A stretch of 64,000 nt of DNA from NCBI GenBank assembly GCA_963734505.1, contig CAVTHH010000011.1, positions 8,196 to 72,195 of the forward strand, written 5' to 3'. Shown in pieces: positions 2,675 through 19,524 of the stretch. The position numbers were made by a program, and so were the translations under genes. The notes under the pieces were generated by a model. That model saw only the letters and a list, made by a program, of their open reading frames with translations. It made no database searches and was not told the DNA's origin. Positions within the stretch are counted from its first letter, which is position 1. Every line of letters begins with the position of its first letter. The DNA comes from Candidatus Bathyarchaeota archaeon (GTDB lineage Archaea > Thermoproteota > Bathyarchaeia > Bathyarchaeales > Bathycorpusculaceae).

Positions 2675-2942
2675 TCTGTCACACCTAACGGAATATTATA
2701 TCTTAATATATAATTGCTATGCTCTTGCTCCCGACACGTGTCAAAAAACGAAATACAGCAAAGGTCGCGCACGAATTCAGTCCCAAACCCTATCTAGGCG
2801 CAAACGAGTAATAGAACTCAAGCATAATTGTTGCCGGTTTAGAACGAAATATCACTGCAATGCAACGGGTGCTGGCTAATGCATTTGTGACTGCGATTAC
2901 GCAATCACACAGCTTTATACCCTCACACTGTTTAGTTCATGT

Positions 2943-3482
2943 ATGTTAAAAACATTTAAAGCACTCATTCTCACTGCCGACAAGTTTGAGGACATGGAGT
3001 TGTTCTTTCCATATTTCCGCTTACTGGAAGAAGGGATAGAGGTCGATGTAGCAGCCCCCGAGAAGGGACACATTGAAGGAGAACACGGCTACGGATTCGA
3101 AGTCGAAAAAACCTTTGACGAAGTCCATCCAGACGATTATGACCTGTTATTAGTTCCCGGCGGGGCGCCAAATGGAGCGCCGTCAGTGGTCAGAAAGGAC
3201 ACCAGGGCTCAAGCCATTGCAAAATCGTTTTTCAACTCCAACAAACCCGTTTCCTCCATCTGTCATGGCCCCTGGCTCTTGGCTTCCTCAGGCCTCGTAA
3301 AGGGAAGACACTTGACTGCTTACTGGTATGACGGCGTTCCAGACGACATAAAGAAAGCAGGCGGAATATACGAGGACAAAGAAGTAGTTGTTGACGGAAA
3401 CCTTGTCACGTCACGTTATCCTGGGGATTTGCCCGCGTTCATGAGAGAAACAATGCGAATGGTAAACAGGATCAAGAAATAG
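2943..3482 (+). CDS. pfpI: PfpI/DJ-1 family protein (glyoxalase III/deglycase-like)
   Basis: FEDMEL, VPGG, ICHGP nucleophile elbow, VVDGNLVTSR. Confidence 0.9.
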   Translation: MLKTFKALILTADKFEDMELFFPYFRLLEEGIEVDVAAPEKGHIEGEHGYGFEVEKTFDEVHPDDYDLLLVPGGAPNGAPSVVRKDTRAQAIAKSFFNSNKPVSSICHGPWLLASSGLVKGRHLTAYWYDGVPDDIKKAGGIYEDKEVVVDGNLVTSRYPGDLPAFMRETMRMVNRIKK

Positions 3483-3562
3483 TTCCTGAAAACGTCCGAA
3501 TAAAATCTCCATTTTTGAGTTTTTTTGAAAATTGAAGTAAAAAGAAAAAAGAGAAAAGAGGT

Positions 3563-4126
3563 CTATTTCAATGCAATTTTTCGTTTTGGCTTGGGCGTTT
3601 TCTTCGGAAGCGTTATTTCCAGTACTCCCTCGCTCAGGTCTGCTTTGACTTCGTCAATTTTTATCTCCTCTGGCAGCTCAATTCTTCTGTAGAATGTTTT
3701 GCATGCGCGTTCTTTACATATGTAAAGTTGACCTTTCTCGTCATATTTCCATCCTGCCATGCCCGTTATCGCAACCGCGTTGTCTTGGACTTCGATCTCG
3801 ATGTCTCCTCTTTTGAAACCGGGCATTTCCGCTTTCAAGAGATATTCCTTTTCGCTATCTTTCAAATCCACCGCTGGGACCCGGATTTCAGGCATAAAAG
3901 AAAATGTCTTGGTCCAATTCGCAGGGAAAAGGAGATCTTCAAAATCACTCCTGAATCTGGTGAACGTGTCGTCGAACGCTTGCCAAATATCCGAAGGAGA
4001 AGCGGGCGCCAAATCGGATATTTTACTTGAGGGTTTGCTAACTATCATCGACTTCTTTTTCTTGGCTGCTGTTTCGGCTTCCTTTGAAGCTTCTTTATCT
4101 TTGACTGTGGGTTTCTTTTCAGCCAT
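3563..4126 (-). CDS. Hsp20/alpha-crystallin small heat shock protein
   Basis: PAVDL...AEMPG...F.RRIELP...GVLEITLPK and C-terminal IAL (IxI-like) motif. Confidence 0.92.
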   Translation of the reverse strand: MAEKKPTVKDKEASKEAETAAKKKKSMIVSKPSSKISDLAPASPSDIWQAFDDTFTRFRSDFEDLLFPANWTKTFSFMPEIRVPAVDLKDSEKEYLLKAEMPGFKRGDIEIEVQDNAVAITGMAGWKYDEKGQLYICKERACKTFYRRIELPEEIKIDEVKADLSEGVLEITLPKKTPKPKRKIALK

Positions 4127-4372
4127 TAAAACTCCCAGTAAACGTTGTGTTATAGTTCTCTCTTAAGGGTATGTGACTGTAGGAAGACAACCACAAGCGC
4201 GCGTTTATTGGTTGCTTAAAGATTTCAATGATTTGTCTTATGTTTTGTCCTGCTGGTTATGGAGAAAGTGTCTCCCGAAACTCTACTTTTGTTTCTTGTG
4301 GTTTTACTTTGGGGACTCCATCGAGTGCAATTCCACAATCTCTTTTCTTTTTCCGCGCGTTATGATTTTCCT

Positions 4373-5248
4373 CTATTCTTCTGTTTCTTCTTTCTCTTGA
4401 GTTTGCGCTCGTTTGTTTTCTGCTCGTTTTCTTGAATCGCTACTGTTTATTGAAGCCATAGCAGCCAGCCCTCCTGCGCCAATGCTTTTCAGAGTTTCCG
4501 TCGGCAACGCAAAGATAATGGTGTTGCTCTGGTCCTTGCTAACCTGCTTGATAGTTTCCAGAATTCTCAGCTGCAGCGCATCATTTTCCGCTAAGACAGC
4601 GGCTGCTTTCGCAAGATTTGTAGAAGCTTCCAACTCAGCCGCAGACTTGATTACTATCGCTCTTGATTCGCGTTCTGATTCGGCTTGAACCGCAAAAGCA
4701 CGCTGCATGTTTTGGGGCAGATTTATTTCCTGCAGTTCAGTTCTTGCAATGTCGATTCCCCATTGCTGGGCCAACTCGTCGATTATGCTCTTTATTGAGA
4801 CCGCAACTTGCTCACGGCTGGATAACAGCTCGTCTAGTTTGTATTGTCCGACAATGTTTCTCATGGAAGTCTGCGCGTACTTGGTTACTGCTTCCTTATA
4901 GTTAACGACATTCAGAATTACCTTCTCAGGGTCTTCCACTTTCATGAAGACAACCGCGTCAAGACCCACCGAAATGCTATCCTTGGTTATCGCAGACTGC
5001 CCTCTCAAGTCTATGGTCTGCATTCGCATGTCAACTCGGTAGAGCGAGTCAACGAATGGTATCTTGAAGTTTATCCCTGTGCTGGCGATTTTGGTGATTT
5101 TTCCAAATCTAAGGACAGCAACCTTTTCCCACTGCTTAACAATGTAAAACCCTAATCTACCCACTAAAAAGACGAAAAGAACAGCTAAAAAGATTAATCC
5201 TATCTCCCACGGTTCCACTTTTCCAGCACCGGTAGACCATATTGCCAT
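4373..5248 (-). CDS. SPFH/band-7 stomatin-like (slipin) protein
   Basis: N-terminal TM, AVLRFGK, ITKD.ISVGLDAVV, AQTSMRNIVG, WGIDI, ALQLRILETI. Confidence 0.92.
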   Translation of the reverse strand: MAIWSTGAGKVEPWEIGLIFLAVLFVFLVGRLGFYIVKQWEKVAVLRFGKITKIASTGINFKIPFVDSLYRVDMRMQTIDLRGQSAITKDSISVGLDAVVFMKVEDPEKVILNVVNYKEAVTKYAQTSMRNIVGQYKLDELLSSREQVAVSIKSIIDELAQQWGIDIARTELQEINLPQNMQRAFAVQAESERESRAIVIKSAAELEASTNLAKAAAVLAENDALQLRILETIKQVSKDQSNTIIFALPTETLKSIGAGGLAAMASINSSDSRKRAENKRAQTQEKEETEE

Positions 5249-5281
5249 AACTCAATATAAAATTTTATCCCAAACCCGAAA

Positions 5282-5803
5282 CTAAGGAGTTCCTTTCTCA
5301 GAGACTGCTGTTTCTTCTCGATATTGACGAATTACTCTAATGAGTTCCTCCAATCCCTTGCCTCTGATTTCAATCGGTTCTCGACCTACAACATGTAACG
5401 TAAAGACAGGAGGTCCAAGCGACAGAAACACACCCAATATAATCAGAATTATGCCACCAATACCCAAACCTGTCGAAATAATATACAGGATATTTGATAA
5501 AATATCTCCTTCCCAATACCAACCCTGCGCAATCAGAGGACGAAAATAGTTCAACAACAATCCAAAAACAATAACAAAAACCCCTGCCGCAATATAGCGT
5601 AATGGAATCTCCTTCTCATACTCAATGGAGGAGATGTAGCGGTAAGAAGCGTCAACAATTTCTTTTCCACCAAAGATCCCCTTCTTTTTGAGGATGAGAC
5701 GTTTGTTTGTCACATATACTTCCCTTTGAGGATTTCCAACAATGATAACTTTCTCGTCAGGAGTGAGGTATGAGGCAATATCAGACGGTATTGACGAAAC
5801 CAT
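5282..5803 (-). CDS. PH-like domain membrane protein
   Basis: YLTPDEKV...VYVTNKRLIL..KGIFGG...ISSIEY (bacterial/archaeal PH pattern) interrupted by two TM helices. Confidence 0.65.
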   Translation of the reverse strand: MVSSIPSDIASYLTPDEKVIIVGNPQREVYVTNKRLILKKKGIFGGKEIVDASYRYISSIEYEKEIPLRYIAAGVFVIVFGLLLNYFRPLIAQGWYWEGDILSNILYIISTGLGIGGIILIILGVFLSLGPPVFTLHVVGREPIEIRGKGLEELIRVIRQYREETAVSEKGTP

Positions 5804-5836
5804 TTATCTTGTTCCCTGTAAAAATGGGGAGATGTG

Positions 5837-6082
5837 CTACTGCAGGCCTTCAAGTTCACGGCTCGTTGCATCGATATTTGAGACTTCCCTTTTTAGCTGG
5901 GGTTCGTCATGTCTCATTTCTTCACAATGACAATCTCTGTTTTCTTCCTTTGTTTTACACTGTTCACACAAGTTGGAAACTGGTCTCGTGGAGGTCTTTT
6001 GATGAATGTACATGGGATACTGGGTGCAGTTCTCACACCAATGCCAATTGTCATGGTCGCTTCCCTTAACATATTCCACCAA
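5837..6082 (-). CDS. small Cys-rich putative Zn-binding protein (paralogue of 19865-20104)
   Basis: WHWCENC-TQYPMY...LCEQC...CHC; near-identical motif in a second ORF. Confidence 0.75.
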   Translation of the reverse strand: MVEYVKGSDHDNWHWCENCTQYPMYIHQKTSTRPVSNLCEQCKTKEENRDCHCEEMRHDEPQLKREVSNIDATSRELEGLQ

Positions 6083-6178
6083 TTCTAATCACCAACTCTC
6101 TTTTGCAATTTGTATCTGCAAAGAGAAAACACTAATATACGTTATCTTTAACCAGTGCAACAAAAATACAAGCGCACG

Positions 6179-6298
6179 CTAGTGTTTAAGCAATTCAAAA
6201 GATAAAATATCTTCCAAAACTTTCTTGCAGCGCTCTAATTTAGAAATTTCTGCGTTGATCTTCTCTAACTCTTCCCTAGCGCTTACTTCAATTTTCAT
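6179..6298 (-). CDS. 39 aa coiled-coil micro-protein
   Basis: manual translation MKIEVSAREELEKINAEISKLERCKKVLEDILSFELLKH, GGTGA SD-like motif just upstream. Confidence 0.4.
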   Translation of the reverse strand: MKIEVSAREELEKINAEISKLERCKKVLEDILSFELLKH

Positions 6299-7125
6299 AA
6301 TCACCCAATCACATGATTGCCGTTTTAAGGTTTCTTGTGAACCGCACTTGGCCTAGAAGTCAACTTTTCTTTGCAATCAAGTGGATCTTCCGGTCCTGTT
6401 TTCTATAGTTATGTTCTACCAAACAATAACGCTGTTTGTGGAAAAGTAATCCGTTTTTGGACTTCATACTTCTTATATATTTGATAAGCCCAAAGCAACT
6501 CGATGCGCACAGTGGTTCAGTCCATTTTCCTTTTCCTAAAGGAATGGAGTCTCTTGAACTCTGATGCGCATCCCTTCATCACAAATTATGCTTTAGAAAA
6601 AGCAGTCCATTTTTGGACAGACGAGTCGTTATATACCTGTTCAACCGAGAAACAAACTGATGCGCTAGCGGTTCAGTACAAGTTCCTTTGTCCTATAGGT
6701 ATGACGTTTCTTGAATCCTAGCGTGCGATACCTTGAAGTTCAAGTTTTGCGCGTCCGCTTCCTTATTGCTTCACCATTCTCTATCCTGAACACGTTGCCA
6801 AACTCGGTGAGAACAGTCTCGCATTTAGTGCATTTCTGAGTTTTCAAAGACCGGAAAGCAAGGATAGGACGATGCTGTTCAGGATGAGGATTAGTTTAGT
6901 TTTGCTGTTGCAACTTCCAAAAAGTTCCAGCAGCCGCAGTTGAGACATTGAACTTTTAGCGTTGTTTTCACGCTCAAGCCTTCAATCCCATCAAGAAGCA
7001 TTTAGGCTTTAAGATTGTTTAGGCGACACTCACGAGCACTGTTGACTTGTTGTGCACAAAAATACATAACCTTATAGGAGACGTAGTAGCAAACTGAAAT
7101 TAACTCGACCTAGTGGAAGTTTCAA

Positions 7126-7278
7126 ATGGAAATCAGAAGGCTGCTAATAGTGGTCTTTTTCTTGACTGTTGGGATTCTGCTTATTGCTGACGGTGTTGCA
7201 GCGAGTTTTGCCGTGACGTTTCTGGTTGGTTTGGCTATGGCACTTCTCGGCTCTATATTCTGGCTTAACGCTGAATAA
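7126..7278 (+). CDS. 50 aa two-TM micro-protein
   Basis: manual translation MEIRRLLIVVFFLTVGILLIADGVAASFAVTFLVGLAMALLGSIFWLNAE. Confidence 0.5.
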   Translation: MEIRRLLIVVFFLTVGILLIADGVAASFAVTFLVGLAMALLGSIFWLNAE

Positions 7279-8008: not shown

Positions 8009-8976
8009 ATGGGAAACCTCATAGTTGCCGTTCTCGGCGCATCGGATTACGCAAGCAGCCTTGGCAAGAAAGGCACGGCCTACGGACATCACTCTTTACG
8101 ACTTGAAGAGAGGCTTGGACAGCGTGACGTTCGTAGAACCCACCAGATATCCTGAGAGGCTAGCCCCGCTCTTCTATGCGGTAGCTATGGCTGATAAGGC
8201 ACTGGTTGTGGTGGACGAGTTGAACTCAAGCTTCGGAGAATGCCTTGTTATGCTTCAATGCTCCAACGTGAACGGCGGCTACTTCATTCTTAGAAACTAT
8301 TTATCTAGGGAAAAAATTGAACCTTTGATTAGGGGTACCTGTCTGGAGAGATTCGAATTTATGGAGGACAATCCGACGTTGCTGAGAGAGCGATTCATTA
8401 CCGAAGCTGCCCTTCAAGAACCAGAGAACGAAGCCGAAGAAGCCGTAGGGACAGTTCCCCTTGACCATGCGTTTAACGTGAAAGGAGTGGGGACCGTGGT
8501 CCTCGGCACAGTAACCAACGGCAGCATCATGAAACATGATACCATGCAGGTTCTTCCAGGAGGAAAAACCACGCAGGTAAGATCGATACAGAAGCAAGAC
8601 GACGAATTCGATTCAGCATATGAAGGCGAGAGAGTAGGTCTCGCACTGAGAGAACATAGAAGTCGCAGACCTGGACAGGGGAACAGTCTTAACAAGAGAT
8701 CCCGCAGTTAAATCTTCAAAACTGCTGGATACTCATGCGTCCTTGGTTAAGTATTGGCCTGCAAGAATAAAGACGGGCATGATTTTGCACTTGGGACATT
8801 GGATGCAGTTTATCAATGGCAGGGTTGAAGCCGTCACTGACGAGGAAGACTGGCGCAAACCGGTTTTAACGGTGGCTTTGGATAAGGAACTCGTGCATCG
8901 ACCAGGCGACCAAGCCGTGCTCATGTACTTAGAAGGTGGAAAGCTGCGCGTAGCCGGCACGATAGAGCTGCCCTGA
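8009..8976 (+). CDS. SelB-like/EF-Tu domain 2 protein with degenerate G domain; two apparent indels (~8078, ~8651)
   Basis: joined frames read MGNLIVAVLG...LGKKGT.TDITLY...DHAFNVKGVGTVVLG...RSIQ..D...GERVGLAL.NIE..DLDRG...LRVAG. Confidence 0.8.
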
Positions 8977-9006: not shown

Positions 9007-9174
9007 GTGGCTGTCTTGACGACTAAAACGTTGCTTTGTGGATGCGTTTATGAAGAAAGCGAGTGGATGCTCGTGCGAGTAAAAGAGTGTGAAAGGCATC
9101 AGAAGCAGCGAACCAGAAAAAGAGAGTACAGACCAAAAGCAGAATGCAACAGGAACGATACCAAAGGCGAATAA
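9007..9174 (+). CDS. micro-protein with CxC...CxxH Zn-binding pattern
   Basis: manual translation ...TKTLLCGCVYEESEWMLVRVKECERHQKQR... Confidence 0.45.
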   Translation: MAVLTTKTLLCGCVYEESEWMLVRVKECERHQKQRTRKREYRPKAECNRNDTKGE

Positions 9175-9408
9175 ACGCGCGCGTTTCGCAAGAATTCCAC
9201 GCCAAAAAAAAGATCAATATTCTTCTTTCTTTTTTGGTGGATATTACAAATCGTGTTCCCGCGCATGAGATTGCCCGAGCGACTACCCATTAGTTAGCTG
9301 GGAGAGCCTGCCTCTAAAGTGAAAGACGTTAGTTGCGAAAAACAATTGACTTTTTAGTGAAGTGCGGTTGTCAATAAACCTTTAACAATAGACAGATTAG
9401 AGCGCTAG

Positions 9409-9843: not shown

Positions 9844-10081
9844 TTCTCTCCCTCAAGAAGGGCAAATCGTAGGATAGCATATAAACCATATTTCCAGAAA
9901 CCTAATACATCAAAAACGCCACGCCAATCAGTCCAGCATGGAAAGATATAGAAAAAGATAAAGGAAAAAGCAAAGGGCTCGTCTGAATCCATTTAGTGAA
10001 TTTTCAGCGCGTGCCAAATTCGACTCACTTGTTCATTAGCACTCTGCCCATACGTTGTTGCTGTTTCAGTCGCGAAACCCT

Positions 10082-11360
10082 CTATTCTTCGCCAAGCATT
10101 TGTACCGCGTTTAAAGCTGACAGCGCTGAGGTTTCCATGCTTGAGACCGCCGACTCTACGGCATTAACATACATAAATCGTTTGTCAATGCGGGTTGGAG
10201 GCAACTTGGTTAGGGGTTTGAACACAGGGTAGGCAGCTTTCCAGCAACGCTCCAAAACCATAACTCCGCCGTCTCTAAAGATGCCATTGAACACATATTG
10301 GGCTGAGGGGCTCTGGCGAGGAAATCGTAACCAAAGACCTCCCATCCCTTGCTTTTTGAATGATGTACTGAGTTATCGAACCCGAGTCCTCTGTGGTCAA
10401 CACAATAGCCGGAGGCTCTTCCGAATCTTTCAAACCAAAACATTCTGGGTCAAAAACGCCACGCATAACCCGCTTATAGACAGGCTGATAAGTCTGAGGC
10501 TCCCAACCATGCACGGACAAGCCATCGAATCTTATGTCTGCAAGTTCAAGAGGTGTGGCGATTATCACACTGTCAAAAACCGTCATGTCTCCTCCAGCAT
10601 ACACCTTATAATTACCTTCAAGCGTCTTTTCTATCATTTCAACTTTTTGAGACAGTTTAACCGTGGCATTCGAGGCTTTCGCAAGATGAACTGGCAAAGT
10701 GCTGTTGCCCTCCGCTAAACTGTACATTGCCCCCGAGTAAACTCCTATCAAGGAAGAAATCCCCGCCAATCCTCCCAGGTCCGCGTTCTGAGAGTATATA
10801 ATCCTGGTGATGGGAGCAACAATTTCATCAATAAAGTCATGACTAACGCCTTCCTCAATCAATATCTCAGAGAACTTCTCTTTGTGCCATTTGTCTAAAC
10901 CAGTCGCCTCGAAAATTTCACCCATATCGGCAGGGACGGAGAGTTTTTGGTACAGTTTGGCTACTTGCCCTCGTGCTTTCCTCAGGAGAAGAAAAGTTCG
11001 CGCTAGGCTAAGTTTGTACTTTTCCAGAAGTCTAAGGCTTGTGGCGAATGACTTCTTGTTTGACTTGAAAACGAATTCTGAGCCATTCCATACCGCGAAA
11101 TCCACGCGTTCTTCGATTGGCGTCGTTCTCAGCTGCTCGTCCCCTATGAGTCCCGAAAGCGTCCTGTTGAAACGGTTGAAGAAGGCGGCACCCAACTCAA
11201 GATTCACTCCAGCCGCATTACGCGTTAGGATTCTGCCGCCTACTCTGTCCGCAGAATCGTAAACAGTCACTTTTACGCCTGGAAGGTATTTGCGGGCAAA
11301 ATATGCAACGGAACACCCGCCTATACCAGCACCAACTACCGCTAAATTCGCCAGTTTCAC
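10082..11360 (-). CDS. prenylcysteine oxidase/lyase (PCYOX1)-family FAD oxidoreductase; one apparent indel ~10301
   Basis: VVGAGIGG, RVGGR, ELGA, FIDEIVAPITRIIYSQ, IIATPL, VLTTED, then in the next frame WKAAYP..KP and YVNAVESAVSSMETSALSALNA. Confidence 0.85.
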
Positions 11361-11430
11361 ACCCGAACATGAATGAACACCTAACAAGATAAACCCAAAT
11401 GTAAACAACAGGTTCAGAGTTTCAATCAAC

Positions 11431-11460
11431 AAACCTTAAGTAACACAGCCTACGCGTAGG
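11431..11460. promoter_or_regulatory. TATA-like box plus 12-bp palindrome CCTACGCGTAGG in the divergent promoter region
   Basis: AAACCTTAAGTA about 25-30 nt upstream of ATG 11464; perfect palindrome at 11449-11460. Confidence 0.4.
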
Positions 11461-11463
11461 GGT

Positions 11464-12363
11464 ATGCTCCAAGAAGTCAAAGGGTTCGCCCAATTCATCA
11501 GTGTAGAAAGAGGCATAATGCTTTTCATGATCTCCGTCGGCGCAACATTCCTGATGACCAAAACCCTCGCCTGGTCTTCCGCCCTTTACCTCGGCTTCAC
11601 AGTGTTCTGTATCTGGAGCGCCGTAGACGCCATAAACAACCTTTGCGACGCTGACCTGGACGCCCTTTCTGACCCTTCACGTGCGGAGTTCACAAAAAGA
11701 CTGGGGAAACTGGGCATGCTCATCACGGGAGCTTTTGCCGCTTTGTCTTTGGCATTGGGCGCCGCAACATTGATCCCCTTCGTTGCTCTGTCTGTCGCGC
11801 TAGGCATCGTTTTCGGCGTATTGTACTCTGTTCCTCCTTTCAGACTACGGAAAACAGCGTATAAACCAATAGTTAATTTCACTGTGGGTGCGGTTCCAGT
11901 GCTGATCGTTGCCGCTTTCTTCAACGTATTTTCCGCCGATGTTGTTTCGCTTATTCTGCTCATAGGCGTAACAACTTCAGTTAACAGCTTGTGGGAGGAC
12001 TTGGCGGACTACGCTTCAGACTTCCACAGCGGCTCTCGAACTGTGCCGATAATTTTCGGTTTCCGCAAGGGGCTTCTCTTGACAATCAGCCTGGGCTACG
12101 CTATGATTCCTATGATGGTATTCGTAGGCTTGCTCTTTCAGCTTGGCTGGGTCTACTACGCTTCATTGATCGCGCTTGCCGCATTTGTGTCGCTTCGAAT
12201 CGTACAGAAAAGAGATACATTATTCAATCACCCTGGAAAAGACACTGAGAGACTGCACATGCTGGGCGAAGTTTTGGCAAGAGACTTCGTAGTAACTGCT
12301 ATCGTTTTTACGCTCAGTTTGATGGTTAGCAGTCTACTCAAAATCAACACAACCTTTCTATAG
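11464..12363 (+). CDS. UbiA-family membrane prenyltransferase (DGGGP synthase-like)
   Basis: about 8-9 TM helices; NNLCDADLD (NxxxDxxxD), YSVPPFRL, EDLADYASD..GSRTVP motifs. Confidence 0.88.
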   Translation: MLQEVKGFAQFISVERGIMLFMISVGATFLMTKTLAWSSALYLGFTVFCIWSAVDAINNLCDADLDALSDPSRAEFTKRLGKLGMLITGAFAALSLALGAATLIPFVALSVALGIVFGVLYSVPPFRLRKTAYKPIVNFTVGAVPVLIVAAFFNVFSADVVSLILLIGVTTSVNSLWEDLADYASDFHSGSRTVPIIFGFRKGLLLTISLGYAMIPMMVFVGLLFQLGWVYYASLIALAAFVSLRIVQKRDTLFNHPGKDTERLHMLGEVLARDFVVTAIVFTLSLMVSSLLKINTTFL

Positions 12364-13003
12364 ATAAGCAATATTTCATTTGTTTCGCTCTCATGGCTCA
12401 CGCACGATTATTCTGCTTCGCTGAATCGAGTTTACCTGCACGAAATCTAATTGACTGAACAGTGAAATCGCGTTCTCAAAAAGAGTTATTTTCCATCAAA
12501 ACCACAGCATTGTCTGAGGGGAAACGGGGAAGGCAGCAACCACAAAGATAGCGGCACTTTCTTCTCTCATGGGTTTTCACCACCCAAAACCTTCTCCCCC
12601 CTTCAAAACCAGCAAAAGAGAGTTTCTTCAATTCACAAGGCAAACCAGACATGTATTGAGATAATAGAGGGGTAGGGAAGCCTTCTCTCTTTCTCATCGT
12701 TCTTCCCGAGCAGAACCATGTTTTTGCAGCTTGACATTTTCCTGCTAGCGAACCCAAACTTGGCGGTTTCCCTATTTTACAGAGATGAGCAGTTTGGCTT
12801 AATAACCATCCTTCCAAACCGTAATATTCCCGATGTTCAACACTTGCACAGGAAACAGCCAAACCTCATCTGATTGAACTCGAAGAATAATCTGTGAATC
12901 AAAGGTGCACAATTCTTTTCACGCAGAATCATCCTATGCTCAATTTTATCTTCTGATAGTTAGGATTTGATGCGAGAATAGGTTGAAAGCGCTTGTTATC
13001 TCG

Positions 13004-13768
13004 CTATGGTTTACGCTTCTTGAAGCCAACAACGAGACCCGTGCTGTTGAAGGCCGCCAGCGCAACTCCGGTCACGATCAAGAACGTGGGAAACGGTTCT
13101 GGGTTAGAATTCGTAGTTGGAGGCGTAGGAGTTGGAGAAACTGTTGAGGGCGAGGGGGTTGGTTGAGGTTGAGGCGTAGGAGAAGGAGATGGAGTTGGCG
13201 TGGGTTTCGGCGCTGGTGATGGTAGGCGAGTAGGAATGCGCCCTAAAGTCTGCGGGTTGAAATCTGTGAATGAAGTTGATTGCATGTACGAGGCTAAATT
13301 CGTGCTCACCATTATCTGATTAACCATACTTACCCAATGATCACCATTCGCGCCAGGAAGCACGAGGCGAAGGGTCTCGACCAAAGGTTGCCCATTCATC
13401 TCATAAGCTATTATTACGTCATCTCGCACAGCGTCGGTCATAGAGATGTCTCTCATATACCCGTCTGAGGCGGAGAACCCCACCGACTTCGCTCCAACAT
13501 CAGGTTCAACCTTGTCAAGTAGAACATGGAGACTTACGCCGGTCCAGTTTCCTGCAGTCACGAAGACGCCGTAGCAGTATATTTCCCCATAGACCGAACT
13601 CTTCGGTTGCGCCATAAGTTCGCTGATGGTCAAAGCCATGGGATTGGAGACGGCGCCGTCTATTTTTAACGTCCATTCTGAGTAGGCATTCGCCTGGATC
13701 GTGCCTCCGAAAATAATGGAAACAAGAAAGATTGCAAGCAAAAATTCCAAGAGGATTTTCTTTTTCAT
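13004..13768 (-). CDS. surface-anchored molybdopterin-binding (sulfite oxidase fold) protein
   Basis: signal peptide, WTLKIDGAV, IYC..., WTGVSL, ASDGY, IIAYEMNGQPL..LRLVLPG, Pro/Thr linker, PEPFP + TM + KKRK tail. Confidence 0.8.
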   Translation of the reverse strand: MKKKILLEFLLAIFLVSIIFGGTIQANAYSEWTLKIDGAVSNPMALTISELMAQPKSSVYGEIYCYGVFVTAGNWTGVSLHVLLDKVEPDVGAKSVGFSASDGYMRDISMTDAVRDDVIIAYEMNGQPLVETLRLVLPGANGDHWVSMVNQIMVSTNLASYMQSTSFTDFNPQTLGRIPTRLPSPAPKPTPTPSPSPTPQPQPTPSPSTVSPTPTPPTTNSNPEPFPTFLIVTGVALAAFNSTGLVVGFKKRKP

Positions 13769-15215: not shown

Positions 15216-15560
15216 TTGAACAGCAATTTGGACGCTGAGGTTCCACGGCATTTGGAAAAGAAGTTTCATTTTCAAGAGATGAATTGGATAATCACCTTCC
15301 CTGGCTCAGGAAATAAAGGAAAGAAATATCCTGATTACTTAGTTTTACTCTCAGTTCTCAAGAACATGAGTTTGAACGAGAAAGTCCGCCTTATCGAAAT
15401 TGTTGAAAACATTGAGTTTCAAGAAAGATTCCCTCATACAGTTGGATTCTTCAAGTCTGAAACTAACGAGTCCCCGTGTGAAGACTTGAATTATTTGGAG
15501 TTGCGAATAGTGGGATCCGTTGAAGAGTTCTGGAAATTCCTCAACGATTTAGATCTTTAG
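15216..15560 (+). CDS. hypothetical protein
   Basis: 114 aa ORF with protein-like composition. Confidence 0.6.
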   Translation: MNSNLDAEVPRHLEKKFHFQEMNWIITFPGSGNKGKKYPDYLVLLSVLKNMSLNEKVRLIEIVENIEFQERFPHTVGFFKSETNESPCEDLNYLELRIVGSVEEFWKFLNDLDL

Positions 15561-16871
15561 CGAGCGAAGTTTACTTTGACCGCGTGAGTGGAGCATGATA
15601 TGCAGGGATCATACGCTCTCACCAGCATTTCCAGGGTCAACTCTATCTCCTTCTCTGATTTTTCAAGAATCTGAGGCAATAGAGCTTTCATGTCCAACTC
15701 GATATTGGCGTGATTCTGGTTCGTCGGGATTATGCAGTTGGCTTTCGTACACACTCCTTTGGCATTGTACGTATAGTCGTGAAACAGAATTCCTCTGGGA
15801 ACCTCGACCGCACCTACGCCCTGACCCGCCTTCACCTTAATTTCTATTTTGTTGTACTCTGGCTGACTCTTCAAATCTGCAGCTTCAAGCTCATTAATCA
15901 AGCGAATAGAGTCTTCGACACTCTGAACAACTTCAACGAGTTGGGCAACGCTGTTCATAAAGGGATTGTAGCACATCGGCAACAAATTGAATGCTTCAGC
16001 TGTTTCCAGAGCCATCGGTGATAACCTCTTGTAATTGATGTTTAGTCTCGCCAAAGCCCCCACCATATAGGATTCTCGCATATGCTTTGCCCACTTGGCC
16101 GTTGACCTGGGCACCACATACTCGTTAGTGAAAGCCAAGTACTCTCTAGCGGGAGCCGTACCCGTATCAGAGGAAGCTATTACTCCGTCATAAAGCGCGT
16201 ACTCGTTAGGATTCGTCAGAGCGATAAACTCGGTTTCTCTCTTGAAGTTTGGAAATTTATTTACTAAACTCTTGAAGAGCCCAGCCATTGCTCGGATGCT
16301 TGAGACTGATTCCTTGAGTTTCTTCCTCAGTTCGACTAATTCTCTCATCGTCGGGATCTTAGAGAAACCGCCAGGGATCAATCTCTGAGGATGAGTTGTT
16401 CTTCCGCAGATCAGAGTTGACATTTCATTCGCGAGTCTGTGAAGCTTCAGAACAGTTTTCACTTCAGGTAGGTTCGTAGAAGCTAAAGGAATAACCGAGC
16501 CTACTCCCATTAGGTCTGGCAGTACCAGAAAACCCAAATGTAAAATGTGGCTCTGCAAATTCTCCGCCATGTAATGCCAGCTTTCTCAGTTTGAGGTCTT
16601 GGTCGCTAATTGTAATACCTAACGCTGCTTCTGTAGCTTTGAGAGAAGCGAGTGCGTGGCCGATAGAGCATATGCCACATATGCGTGAAGTGATGTGGTG
16701 CAGCTCGTTCCAAGACCTGCCTTCAACCATTGCTTCAAAGAATCTAGGAGCTTCTGGAACACTCCACTCACATTTTTCAACGACTCCTTTTTGCATGTTC
16801 ACGTAGATATTTCCGTGTCCTTCCACTCTTGTCACATGGTGCACGGCAACGTCGAGATTTCGATTTTTCAT
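15557..16871 (-). CDS. hydA: group 3b [NiFe]-hydrogenase (sulfhydrogenase) large subunit; one apparent indel ~16565
   Basis: TRVEGHG, L1 SRICGICSIGH, EVPRG.LFH, L2 RAYDPCISCSTH plus C-terminal extension. Confidence 0.92.
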
Positions 16872-17605
16872 CTTTTTGCCTCCTGCCAACCGAAGTATAG
16901 CTTAAACTTGCCTATTGCATCGTCGACCGTGAGACCGTATTTTATTAAGACTTCCTTGTGAGAATTCTCATTCGGATTATCCACAAATCCTCGGCAACCC
17001 CAGCAGATTGTCCCTTCATTTACGCAGCAGGAATTGCAGCCTGCCCTGGTGACTGGCCCAACGCAGAACTGTCCGCGTTCAAAGGCGCATATGTTTTCGT
17101 TTTTCTTGCATTCAACGCAAACAGGGTATGTGATGGTTTCGGGCTTCTTTCCCAGCAAGAGCGATTTCACCACGTGAAGGAAGTCGTCTCGATCTATGGG
17201 GCAGCCGTAAACGTACGCGTCTACAGGTATTATGGCGTCTATGGGTCTTGCAGCGTAGCTGTCGAAAAGCTTTGCGTTTTCTCCGTAGACTGTTTTCTTG
17301 ACGCCTTCGAGGTCTTTGTAGTTTCTGAGTGAATTAATACCTCCGATGGCTGCGCATGAGCCTATGGCGACGACAGTTTTCGCGTTCTTCCTGATCTGTT
17401 TCAGCCTATCTTCATCTTGAAGCCTGGTGCATGACCCTTCGATGAAGGCGATGTCGTAGTTGTCCGCATGCTCTTTCATCACTTCTCTAAAACTGACCAC
17501 CTCGATCTGCCCGAGCAATGTCAAGAGGTCTTCTTCCAGATTGGCTACTTGAAGCTGATCTCCTTCACAGCCCGCAAAGTCAAAAAATGCAACCTTAGGT
17601 TTCAT
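16868..17605 (-). CDS. hydD: group 3b hydrogenase small (delta) subunit
   Basis: CEGDQLQ, IEGS, IGSCA, YGCP, VCVECK...CVGPVTRAGC...CWGCRG; start and stop overlap both neighbours. Confidence 0.9.
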   Translation of the reverse strand: MKPKVAFFDFAGCEGDQLQVANLEEDLLTLLGQIEVVSFREVMKEHADNYDIAFIEGSCTRLQDEDRLKQIRKNAKTVVAIGSCAAIGGINSLRNYKDLEGVKKTVYGENAKLFDSYAARPIDAIIPVDAYVYGCPIDRDDFLHVVKSLLLGKKPETITYPVCVECKKNENICAFERGQFCVGPVTRAGCNSCCVNEGTICWGCRGFVDNPNENSHKEVLIKYGLTVDDAIGKFKLYFGWQEAKR

Positions 17606-19524
17606 CAAAGCGCCTCCGGGACTCCTTTGATTTTGGAATAATTGAAAACGGGGCCATCCTTGCAGACATATATCTGGTTGATTTGGCAGTGACCGCACTT
17701 TCCGACACCGCATTTCATCCTACGCTCAAGTGACATGATGATGTTCTCATCTGGCATATTTCGAGTCTTCAAATCCGCAATGACGAATTTGTACATGACA
17801 GGGGGACCGCACAGTATCGCAAGGGTTCCCTCGGGATCAAACTGAATTTGCGGAATAAGCGTTGTAATAACACCTATGCTTCCAGACCAAACCTCATTTT
17901 CGGGGCACCAATTCACCGTGGATTTGAATTCAACATCATTTCTCGACGCGAGCAAGGCAAGTTCATCTCCGAAGAGTAATTCTTTTGGCTCCTTGCACCC
18001 GTAAAGAAGAGTAACGCGTCCGAAGTCCTTCCTGTTATCCAAGACATAATTGAACAATGATCTCAGTGGAGCTATTCCAAGACCACCCGCTATAAACAAC
18101 AGGTCTTTTCCTTTCATAGACTTACCATCAAAACCCTTGCCAAACGGCCCTCTTATTCCGACTTTGGCTCCCACATCCAAATTGTGAAGGCTCCTTGTAA
18201 CATTCCCCAGTTTTCGGACACATAGTTCAAACGTTTTCTTTTTCGTAGGAGATGATGAAATTGATATTGGGGCTTCGCCTATGCCGAAAACCGATACTTC
18301 AACAAACTGCCCTGGTTCATGCCCAAGCTCCGAACCATCATCAAGTCTTATCTCAAAAAGTGTTTCGAAGGTGGTCATCGGCACTTTCTTAATTATCGTT
18401 CCCAGTTCGGGTACGTAATCTATGTTGCCTTCGGTGCTAATATTGACGTCTGGCTGAGCGGCAGAGAAAGGCATAGGCATTCCACTATTTCGACTTTCAT
18501 GGAACATGTCATTAAACAGATTAACCGGGTTCGCTATGTCCGGAAGACAGTTGGAAGAGCATCTTCCGCATCCAACACAAGAGATGAAGCCGAACCTGTC
18601 ATACAAGTACTTTCCTTTCTTGAAGTAACGGTGACGATAACGTGTTGGTCTGGTCGCACGGAAATTCTCTCCCGAAGCTATTTTAGCAAAATCTTCAAGA
18701 AGGCAACCATCCCAAGTCCTAATTCTTTCACCTTGCTCCAAAGTCAAATCCGGATTGTCTTTAACGTCGAAACAGTAGCAGGTTGGACAAACCAGTACAC
18801 AAGATCCACAGGCTAAACACTTCTCAGAATGACTCTCCCAAAACCCACTCTTAGCATAGCTGGCTCCAAGCAATTCTGGGATCAGTTCTGCCGGAAAATC
18901 CAATTTCTGCTGAACCATATTCCAGACTTCTTGCTTCTTCTGACCAGCAATCTGAATATCACGAGCCAAAGCCGGCGTGATATTCTTCGCGTACTTGAAC
19001 AGAAGAGCCTCTCCCTTTGAGGAGCCAACGTTGATGCCGTACCTGTTGCCTAAATCAGTTAGCATGAGGTCATAGCCATAGTCAATAACGCTACAGCCCA
19101 TGATGGAAGAAAAATTATATTTCGACATTTCTTGAATGTTTGCACCAATAATAATCGAGGACTCTCTTTTCTTGAAATAATACGGATCAGATTTTGTGTC
19201 CCTGAATATTTCATCCATGTGAAGCAAAGCAACAATATCATAGGGATGTACGCCTATTATGACCATGGGCTTAGCCGCCTCGGGGTTCTTCGCCGAAAAA
19301 CCATCTGCTAAATCATAAGTGAACAACGTTTCACGTTGAGGAAAGAAGTATTTCTTCGGAGGCAACAACGTAACGTCATAATCCAGTCGAAGTTCATCTG
19401 CTGAACCCAATGTGCCGAAAGCAAATTTGTTCCCCCGAGATTTTACGCCAATGACATGTCGAGAATCATCTTTGATTAAAGCATTCACAAAATCCTTGAA
19501 GTCTTCTTTGGAGATGATTTTCAT
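17605..19524 (-). CDS. fused sulfhydrogenase beta (4Fe-4S) + gamma (FAD/NAD(P), 2Fe-2S) subunit
   Basis: N-half CLACGSCVLVCPTCYC and CVGCGRC; C-half PGQFV, RGPFG, AGGLGIAPL, CGPPVM, MKCGVGKCGHC...CKDGPVF. Confidence 0.88.
   Translation of the reverse strand: MKIISKEDFKDFVNALIKDDSRHVIGVKSRGNKFAFGTLGSADELRLDYDVTLLPPKKYFFPQRETLFTYDLADGFSAKNPEAAKPMVIIGVHPYDIVALLHMDEIFRDTKSDPYYFKKRESSIIIGANIQEMSKYNFSSIMGCSVIDYGYDLMLTDLGNRYGINVGSSKGEALLFKYAKNITPALARDIQIAGQKKQEVWNMVQQKLDFPAELIPELLGASYAKSGFWESHSEKCLACGSCVLVCPTCYCFDVKDNPDLTLEQGERIRTWDGCLLEDFAKIASGENFRATRPTRYRHRYFKKGKYLYDRFGFISCVGCGRCSSNCLPDIANPVNLFNDMFHESRNSGMPMPFSAAQPDVNISTEGNIDYVPELGTIIKKVPMTTFETLFEIRLDDGSELGHEPGQFVEVSVFGIGEAPISISSSPTKKKTFELCVRKLGNVTRSLHNLDVGAKVGIRGPFGKGFDGKSMKGKDLLFIAGGLGIAPLRSLFNYVLDNRKDFGRVTLLYGCKEPKELLFGDELALLASRNDVEFKSTVNWCPENEVWSGSIGVITTLIPQIQFDPEGTLAILCGPPVMYKFVIADLKTRNMPDENIIMSLERRMKCGVGKCGHCQINQIYVCKDGPVFNYSKIKGVPEAL

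Follow-up and report, generated by a model that had tools for sequence, protein, structure and literature searches.

A prenylcysteine-oxidase-family gene in Bathyarchaeia and its recurrent but partial association with UbiA-family prenyltransferases

The oxidase gene and its product

To our knowledge, prenylcysteine oxidase has been studied in animals and plants only, as the last disposal step for prenylated proteins. In PCYOX1 the heteroatom at the oxidised bond is the sulfur of a thioether, and the products are an isoprenoid aldehyde and the free head group. The structural and evolutionary study of PCYOX1 sampled Metazoa only and left prokaryotes unmentioned (PMC11530802), and no discussion or characterisation of prokaryotic family members was found in the searched literature. 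Here, a gene of this family is described from a stretch of 64,000 nucleotides (hereafter the window) of a Candidatus Bathyarchaeota archaeon (GenBank assembly GCA_963734505.1, contig CAVTHH010000011.1, positions 8,196 to 72,195 of the forward strand). The gene encodes a flavin adenine dinucleotide (FAD) enzyme at 10082..11360 on the minus strand and lies beside a divergent gene for a UbiA-family membrane prenyltransferase at 11464..12363 on the plus strand. Its product has the family assignment, the fold and the active-site tyrosines of prenylcysteine oxidases, and its linkage to and co-occurrence with UbiA recur in other archaeal genomes.

In the window, the oxidase gene is read as two overlapping minus-strand open reading frames (ORFs), 10275..11432 and 10082..10345, and both exceed the 27-bit gathering cut-off of PF07156 (Prenylcys_lyase), the longer ORF with 101.8 bits over profile positions 2-247 and the shorter one with 45.7 bits over positions 289-349. 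Amino_oxidase and NAD_binding_8 are also matched by the longer ORF, with PF07156 as the top Pfam match, and the intact oxidase of Candidatus Bathyarchaeum tardum (G040), a member of the same order, reaches 174 bits. The window oxidase matches PDB entry 9fxq, an ancestral reconstruction of mammalian PCYOX1 (PMC11530802), over its full length (residues 6-420 against 13-456) with an E-value of 5.1e-33 and 26% identity. Other amine-oxidase-fold entries are matched in the Rossmann region only, at E-values of 1e-7 or weaker. The AlphaFold2 model of P0001, an oxidase 98% identical to that of the window, has a predicted local distance difference test score (pLDDT) of 96 and a predicted template modelling score (pTM) of 0.94. 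Foldseek placed 9fxq as its best fold with a template modelling (TM) score of 0.89, the root-mean-square deviation being 3.1 Å, and the next folds (NicA2, Pnao, MAO, putrescine oxidase, and PPO) followed with TM scores of 0.60-0.73 and about 14% identity. Because PF07156 is the top Pfam match and 9fxq is far ahead both by sequence and by fold, the window oxidase is a genuine member of the prenylcysteine oxidase family, neither a generic amine oxidase nor HemY. An earlier sequence-only reading of this DNA had called 11360-10082 colinear with human PCYOX1 and had proposed the Prenylcys_lyase profile as the means of telling it from a generic amine oxidase or HemY; the full-length match and the profile scores of both halves bear this out.

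The repaired translation holds all motifs quoted in that reading (GAGIGG, RVGGR, FIDEIVAPITRIIYSQ, IIATPL, VLTTED, AAYPVFKP, and YVNAVESAVSSMETSALSALNA), and they align with the corresponding stretches of 9fxq. GAGIGG, the dinucleotide-binding motif for FAD, spans residues 10-15 (11316..11333, minus strand), with G10, G12, and G15 invariant in the homolog alignments. Tyr189 (10794..10796, minus strand) is aligned by HMMER to 9fxq at PCYOX1 Tyr221 (RIIYSQ against RVNYGQ) and Tyr377 (10229..10231, minus strand) at PCYOX1 Tyr433, once the numbering of the crystallised chain, which is offset by 20 residues, is taken into account. In PCYOX1, Tyr221 is essential, its Ala mutant being inactive, and Tyr433 sits at the substrate cavity's base next to the flavin (PMC11530802). 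Tyrosine occupies the Tyr189 position in 26/26 close homologs and 67/75 sequences family-wide, and the Tyr377 position in 26/26 and 63/75, respectively.

The two ORFs are split by one extra base at 10297 (minus strand), between ...SPEPLSP and NVFNGIF.... Deleting + coordinate 10297 fuses them into a single 425-aa product with a GTG start at 11360 and a TAG stop at 10082-10084, both on the minus strand. At the junction, Logan contig L071 reads CCCAA-ATGTG against CCCAATATGTG on the minus strand of the window; this contig is 98% identical to the window and codes for the unbroken 425-aa oxidase P0001. Three separate wetland metagenomes yielded contigs that likewise lack base 10297; their identity to the window is about 98.3%, and they cover 9900-12400 unbroken with its gene order. 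A contig of the European Nucleotide Archive (ENA), whose UbiA is 95% identical, carries the oxidase intact as a 443-aa gene call, also in the divergent layout. Two other genes of the window are split in the same manner and whole in the ENA contig, which suggests indel errors in the assembly. These are the large subunit of a NiFe hydrogenase at 15557-16889 (overlapping pieces of 337 and 141 aa; 437 aa whole) and an EF-Tu-like gene with an EF-Tu-domain-2 at 8025-8976 (228 aa and a 77-aa ORF; 324 aa whole). The frameshift at 10297 is thus most likely an assembly error, which is the simplest reading of the aligned contigs, with a true lesion of the strain as the alternative. The absence of the base from near-identical strains agrees with the earlier proposal that the gene is whole once a single indel is repaired. 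In the three metagenome contigs an extra A is also present just 3' of the oxidase stop (10079/10080), a second one-base indel difference within 2.5 kb.

The start at 11360, assumed in the sequence-only reading, is upheld by the starts of homologs, since 75 of the 110 top homologs (those where the motif was found) begin seven residues ahead of GxGxxG. A TTG-started ORF from 11432 would add MLIETLNLLFTFGFILLGVHSCSG, which resembles a membrane anchor or lipobox; it was rejected, as the extensions of the homologs are not conserved. No signal peptide or conserved N-terminal extension was found in the oxidase.

Linkage to UbiA and distribution in archaea

Of 31 Bathyarchaeia loci, 8 have UbiA adjoining the oxidase, arranged in two orientations, and a further one keeps a decayed remnant. 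In 7 of the 31, the adjacent upstream gene is a same-strand UbiA ortholog of about 70% identity, and these tandem loci group in a single clade whose ultrafast bootstrap (UFBoot) support is 100%. The clade includes L008, which retains a UbiA remnant, and one locus from which UbiA is gone. At L008:5742-5813, some 190 bp upstream of the oxidase and in the place taken by the complete UbiA gene in relatives, 24 residues of the UbiA C-terminus (71% identical) are left of a decayed tandem arrangement. The divergent layout of the window is kept in L096, the ENA contig, and the three metagenome contigs. The head-to-head layout, presented in the sequence-only reading as the form of the module, is peculiar to the species group of the window, and UbiA upstream on the same strand is the commoner arrangement. 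At five UbiA genes per 1.5 Mb, chance adjacency would be below about 1% per locus; as about a quarter was observed, the association with UbiA exceeds chance and is real but partial. No other conserved neighbour of the oxidase was found among the 31 Bathyarchaeia loci, nor was any conserved neighbour found for the unlinked UbiA ortholog.

The same linkage was encountered in Asgard genomes, so that the synteny proposed for checking is not unique to this genome or to Bathyarchaeia. In L099 (Heimdallarchaeales, whole-genome shotgun prefix JAJRWK01), UbiA stands in tandem directly upstream of the oxidase. The Asgard scaffold L102 (= G959:C181) carries at 2795-7242 a divergent PAP2 gene and a UbiA gene upstream of the oxidase and a second UbiA gene 29 bp downstream. 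In L097, likewise a distant member of the archaeal oxidase clade, UbiA lies 0.8 kb upstream. The UbiA proteins of L099, L102, and L097 are about 25% identical to that of the window, and their nearest paralog in this genome is another one. Since the UbiA proteins of these distant loci belong to another subfamily, two UbiA subfamilies have become neighbours of the oxidase independently. The isoprenoid cluster of L102 is denser than that of the window, and the pathway might best be elucidated from it.

Co-occurrence extends beyond adjacency. In a sample of 41 close relatives, the UbiA ortholog was present in 3/4 oxidase-bearing and 4/37 oxidase-free genomes (hypergeometric p ~0.012, without correction for relatedness). 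Three more oxidase-bearing genomes all carry the UbiA ortholog, which brings the total to 6/7 vs 4/37, and the one oxidase-bearing genome without it is 65% complete. The distribution of the oxidase is nested inside that of the UbiA ortholog, and within the order both were seen in families f1 and f7 only.

The UbiA-family protein of the window has 299 aa and matches PF01040 with 71.1 bits, against a cut-off of 34.2. Its first Asp-rich motif, NNLCDADLD (residues 58-66; 11635..11661, plus strand), aligns with NDFYDRDID of chlorophyll synthase, and the second, DLADYASD, covers residues 179-186 (11998..12021, plus strand). The best NCBIfam model is TIGR01476 (BchG/ChlG) with 47.2 bits against a cut-off of 212.3, and all 12 NCBIfam matches fall far under their cut-offs (e.g., 36 vs 296 bits). 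Membership in a characterised UbiA subfamily (DGGGPS, ChlG/BchG, UbiA/MenA/MqnP, CtaB, or DPPR synthase) was not found, no NCBIfam cut-off being reached. The best PDB match is chlorophyll synthase with an E-value of 1e-3. Of the five UbiA paralogs in this genome, the window gene is furthest from the Pfam profile, and a paralog on contig C1 is DGGGPS-like, with 239 bits to PRK12884. The placement among UbiA clades called for earlier yields BchG/ChlG and DGGGPS as the nearest profiles, all of them below cut-off. BchG-like UbiA paralogs have been reported in Bathyarchaeia and Heimdallarchaeia (PMC3930316, PMC11193907).

The divergent spacer between oxidase and UbiA (11361..11463) measures 103 bp, which confirms the earlier placement of a UbiA gene with both Asp-rich motifs about 100 bp away. 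It holds a perfect 12-bp palindrome, CCTACGCGTAGG, at 11449..11460, 3 nt ahead of the UbiA ATG and found once in the window. The palindrome had been pointed out in the sequence-only reading; its presence is confirmed but its significance is not, since the window contains 20 perfect 12-bp palindromes where about 15.6 would be expected. The palindrome CCTACGCGTAGG occurs in the 97% identical strain L096, is restricted to the strain group of the window, and is absent from the tandem-clade loci. As an operator it was rejected, with a count in line with chance and tandem-clade relatives that lack it. A second perfect 12-bp palindrome, AACGCGCGCGTT, is located at 9174-9185 in the non-coding stretch 3' of the oxidase. 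The ENA relative has a DJ-1/PfpI gene between those for the EF-Tu-like protein and the oxidase, whereas ORFs of 60 and 63 aa are all that this interval has in the window.

PF07156 is not a eukaryote-specific family and behaves as a patchy accessory gene in archaea. In an exhaustive profile-free search, 1706 cluster representatives had E<1e-3 and 111 had E<1e-30, and full-length close homologs (45-98% identity) made up well over 100 clusters. All nameable close homologs (31/31) come from metagenome-assembled genomes (MAGs) of Bathyarchaeia, a single-cell genome, or Candidatus Bathyarchaeum tardum. Many Bathyarchaeia proteins already bear the JGI pipeline label 'prenylcysteine oxidase/farnesylcysteine lyase'. 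PF07156 was detected in 4/41 close relatives and 5/401 species representatives of Thermoproteota, in two families of the order of the window, and in 9/251 sampled Asgardarchaeota genomes. Four sets of Asgard matches, L107, L108, L110, and L113/L115 (G944, G872, G950, and G902), contain in-frame stops (TAA, TAG, TGA) or are split, and may be pseudogenes or assembly errors. Actinomycetota, suggested as holders by ESM Atlas cluster labels, were dismissed, with PF07156 in 0/301 sampled genomes; the labels may be unreliable, or the gene may be rare there.

A family tree of 145 cluster representatives was built with FastTree and midpoint-rooted, with a taxon for 11 tips and the direction of transfer unreadable from it. 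Proteins of about 425 aa without an N-terminal extension fall into one clade (27 tips, SH-like support 0.96) with the Bathyarchaeia inside. The deeper branches of this archaeal clade include Asgardarchaeota, namely P0132 (JAJRWK01) and P0135/P0278 from another genome; a Heimdallarchaeales family in GTDB takes its name from JAJRWK01 (PMC11193907). Its sister group (SH-like support 0.95) is eukaryotic, judged by one member beside an Enkurin gene, and in this first-pass tree the archaeal clade has a subgroup of protist PCYOX as its neighbour. The labelled eukaryotes further out are Amoebozoa, a glomeromycete, and a green alga. A separate, well-supported clade unites the haloarchaeon Halosegnis longus with an Ardenticatenaceae (Chloroflexota) MAG, and the Halosegnis protein is named 'prenylcysteine lyase family protein' in RefSeq. 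With an archaeal clade and a second prokaryotic clade found, the earlier description of the enzyme as eukaryote-type and regarded as eukaryotic does not hold.

Proposed function and rival explanations

About an even chance is given to the explanation that the oxidase is a cytoplasmic, membrane-facing FAD enzyme that oxidises an isoprenoid-heteroatom bond in a UbiA-dependent pathway. By homology, an isoprenoid-tailed substrate would enter a hydrophobic tunnel of the PCYOX type, and the enzyme would oxidise the carbon beside the heteroatom that joins the tail to the head group. The oxidase would share its isoprenoid pathway with a dedicated UbiA-family prenyltransferase, and its substrate would be a UbiA-dependent prenylated membrane metabolite or something downstream of UbiA. 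Action on or after such a metabolite is proposed because UbiA is the more widespread partner and is nearly always present with the oxidase. The substrate class, the direction of the pathway, and the electron acceptor are what we infer from these comparisons. Action on cysteine from CaaX-type prenylated proteins is unlikely, since searches of five oxidase-bearing genomes found neither subunit of a protein prenyltransferase. The alpha subunit (PF01239) was detected in 0/5, among them the complete Candidatus Bathyarchaeum tardum, and the beta subunit (PF00432) also in 0/5, but the same search was blank in control genomes too. ICMT-type homologs (PF04140) are present in 5/5 oxidase-bearing genomes and in 5/14 unrelated control prokaryotes.

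The genes around the pair (Band 7, the EF-Tu-like gene, a molybdenum oxidoreductase, and the NiFe hydrogenase) are unrelated to the oxidase and UbiA. At 15557-19524 (minus strand) lies a cluster resembling group-3 sulfhydrogenase-type NiFe hydrogenases, with the large subunit, an Oxidored_q6 small subunit, and a 639-aa subunit binding Fe-S, FAD, and NAD. The cluster is consistent with an anaerobic lifestyle, and the holders of the sequence are wetland and freshwater-sediment metagenomes, with no RNA data set listed among them. NicA2 and Pnao are dehydrogenases despite their oxidase fold and pass electrons to cytochrome c, not to O2. Given the NiFe hydrogenase in the window, the wetland and sediment holders, and NicA2 and Pnao as the nearest folds outside PCYOX, the oxidase may, by analogy, deliver its electrons in these anaerobes to an acceptor other than O2. 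The gene at 13004-13768 (minus strand) encodes a PF00174 molybdopterin oxidoreductase that begins with a signal-like segment, continues with a long linker rich in Pro and Thr, and ends in a hydrophobic anchor. From its sequence, this product looks like a surface-tethered enzyme of the YedY/sulfite-oxidase kind. The PF00174 gene adjoins UbiA in close strains as well (L096 and the ENA contig).

Several observations weigh against the proposed UbiA-dependent oxidation. No prokaryotic family member has an established substrate, product, or acceptor, and the oxidase copy in this assembly is frameshifted, with a strain lesion possible. The conserved tyrosines may be the mere general aromatic cage of amine-oxidase-fold enzymes. 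Where PCYOX1 has Val234 in its tunnel, 23/26 close homologs have Ser; this position, Met in PCYOX1-like, lines the substrate tunnel and is not required for catalysis. The PF00432 search, blank in the control genomes as well, is an unvalidated negative. The two genes are far apart or on different contigs in G004, of the same genus, and in Candidatus Bathyarchaeum tardum, and the related genomes compared are non-independent samples. Linkage is the minority state (8/31 Bathyarchaeia loci and 2/~8 Asgard genomes), with most contexts unrelated, and no UbiA was found nearby in another six Asgard genomes, in three loci from metagenomes, or in Halosegnis. Some Asgard oxidase loci adjoin genes for major facilitator superfamily (MFS) or ATP-binding cassette (ABC) transporters, neighbours that fit uptake and salvage over a UbiA pathway.

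Salvage of prenylcysteine or another S-lipid-cysteine, as in eukaryotes, is the main rival to the proposed UbiA-dependent oxidation, although we consider it rather unlikely; the making and breaking of thioethers and the tailoring of isoprenoid chains rank below it. Under salvage, the oxidase would split the lipid-cysteine thioethers that remain after proteolysis into cysteine and an isoprenoid aldehyde; these thioethers could stem from the cell's own lipid-modified proteins or from prenylated peptides taken up out of eukaryotic detritus, and UbiA would serve isoprenoid re-use or share its regulation. The closest characterised relative does the same and requires a free cysteine head group (PMC11530802), and both tyrosines on the head-group side are kept. 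Transporters adjoin some of the Asgard genes, as noted, and Bathyarchaeia have been described as degrading protein and detritus (PMC3930316). Archaeal lipoproteins do carry thioether-linked archaeol on cysteine, but lipidation of the AliA type is reported for Euryarchaeota and DPANN, and AliA and AliB, the only archaeal enzymes characterised for S-lipidation of cysteine, are Lgt-like and not UbiA enzymes (PMC12462473). In archaeol-cysteine the thioether carbon is not allylic. Protein prenyltransferase was not found in the five oxidase-bearing genomes, and an oxidase without a signal peptide implies that the substrate must enter the cell. For UbiA to re-use the aldehyde, a reductase and kinases would be required, none of which is linked, and salvage leaves the near-constant presence of this UbiA paralog in oxidase-bearing genomes unexplained. 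An improbable reading is the one originally put forward, an S-isoprenyl make/break module in which UbiA would S-prenylate a small-molecule thiol or a protein cysteine and the oxidase would reverse this in an isoprenyl-thioether cycle. Linkage that recurs in two orientations and involves two UbiA subfamilies, the nesting of the oxidase within the UbiA distribution, and the ICMT-family homologs of all five oxidase-bearing genomes speak for it, but ICMT-like proteins are also common in oxidase-free prokaryotes and a UbiA neighbour is missing from the majority of oxidase loci. The bonds that UbiA-family enzymes are known to make are C-C, C-O (ether or ester), and phosphoribosyl ones, not thioethers, and the nearest UbiA profiles (chlorophyll synthase and DGGGPS) are of enzymes that make O-prenyl bonds. 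Such a module is possible and has no direct support, because no protein prenyltransferase was found and we know of no UbiA-family enzyme that forms thioethers; the Lgt-like nature of AliA and AliB points the same way. In the overall interpretation of the sequence-only reading, family membership and UbiA linkage therefore stand, whereas the eukaryote type, the make/break module, the head-to-head layout, the palindrome, and the relevance to the origin of eukaryotic prenylation turnover are unsupported or go too far, the last in view of a patchy accessory gene and a family tree whose root is not fixed.

With a pigment, quinone, or lipid made by UbiA as substrate, the flavoenzyme might instead desaturate or oxidise the hydrocarbon chain without cleaving at a heteroatom, which is likewise considered quite doubtful. 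In C50-carotenoid clusters the desaturase CrtD is paired with the UbiA-type lycopene elongase LyeJ, so that pairs of UbiA and an amine-oxidase-fold FAD enzyme are known from carotenoid pathways. The N-terminal part of the oxidase weakly matches the CrtD, CrtI, and HpnE models, and the archaeal BchG-like UbiA paralogs reported from Bathyarchaeia and Heimdallarchaeia (PMC3930316, PMC11193907) also speak for this reading. The CrtD and CrtI matches are, however, confined to the Rossmann region with 19-29 bits against cut-offs of 238-640, the whole-length match in sequence and fold is specific to PCYOX1, and no carotenoid or quinone genes are linked. That the oxidase of this genome is a dead pseudogene, with a UbiA adjacency devoid of functional meaning, is regarded as a long shot. 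Its frame is broken at 10297 and the gene is an accessory one, often lost, with 5/401 genomes of the phylum carrying it; from the closest intact allele it differs in 8 non-synonymous and 5 synonymous codons, too few for a selection test. The sole lesion is, however, a single nucleotide in an otherwise open frame, the gene is intact in four near-identical sources, similar splits elsewhere in the window suggest assembly indels, and UbiA adjacency recurs well beyond chance.

Significance and comparison with known systems

What is newly documented is the recurrent, non-universal association of an archaeal PCYOX variant with UbiA; the family label itself was already in annotation pipelines. The finding is at the level of annotation, with a solid comparative-genomic association and no demonstrated new system. 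Because the archaeal clade is repeatedly UbiA-linked and no protein-prenylation machinery was found, the data suggest that the family originally served membrane isoprenoid metabolism and not protein turnover. A bolder view is very unlikely, namely that in two phyla (Bathyarchaeia and Heimdallarchaeia) UbiA attaches and the PCYOX-type enzyme removes an isoprenoid, possibly as a thioether, and that their clade is ancestral to the eukaryotic enzyme. Once identified, the substrate of the oxidase would give a function to a UbiA paralog common in Bathyarchaeia, would test O2-free oxidation of C-S (or C-O, C-N) bonds by the PCYOX fold, and would provide a handle on eukaryotes as heirs or donors of the enzyme.

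Mammalian PCYOX1 and PCYOX1-like and plant FCLY have PF07156, the FAD Rossmann motif, and both tyrosines in common with the window oxidase. In contrast to the animal and plant enzymes, the window oxidase has no signal peptide or targeting to the endoplasmic reticulum or lysosome, and its length is 425 aa vs about 475-505. It further differs from PCYOX1 in its anaerobic archaeal host, which has no detectable protein prenyltransferase, and in its UbiA-linked gene. NicA2 and Pnao (PDB 5ttj and 7e7h) are the next structural neighbours of the oxidase model and have the amine-oxidase fold (TM 0.66-0.73), but they act on soluble amine substrates and have no isoprenoid tunnel. For the UbiA gene, ChlG/BchG and archaeal DGGGP synthase share the PF01040 fold and both Asp-rich motifs and are the nearest profiles, whereas its scores remain under the family cut-offs and the genome has a separate DGGGPS-like paralog.

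Parallels are also found among prokaryotes. The Halosegnis longus protein WP_075938086.1 and the Ardenticatenaceae MAG protein MGB0388480.1 are, like the window oxidase, PF07156 flavoenzymes without N-terminal targeting, and have about 430-450 aa. Their clade, however, lies across eukaryotic sequences from the archaeal clade at about 30% identity, and the Halosegnis gene has no UbiA neighbour. The Asgard members (e.g., P0132) differ in their linked UbiA, which is of another subfamily, in a locus that adds PAP2, and in others that adjoin transporters. They share clade and length with the window oxidase at about 33% identity, and some of them, like it, stand beside UbiA.

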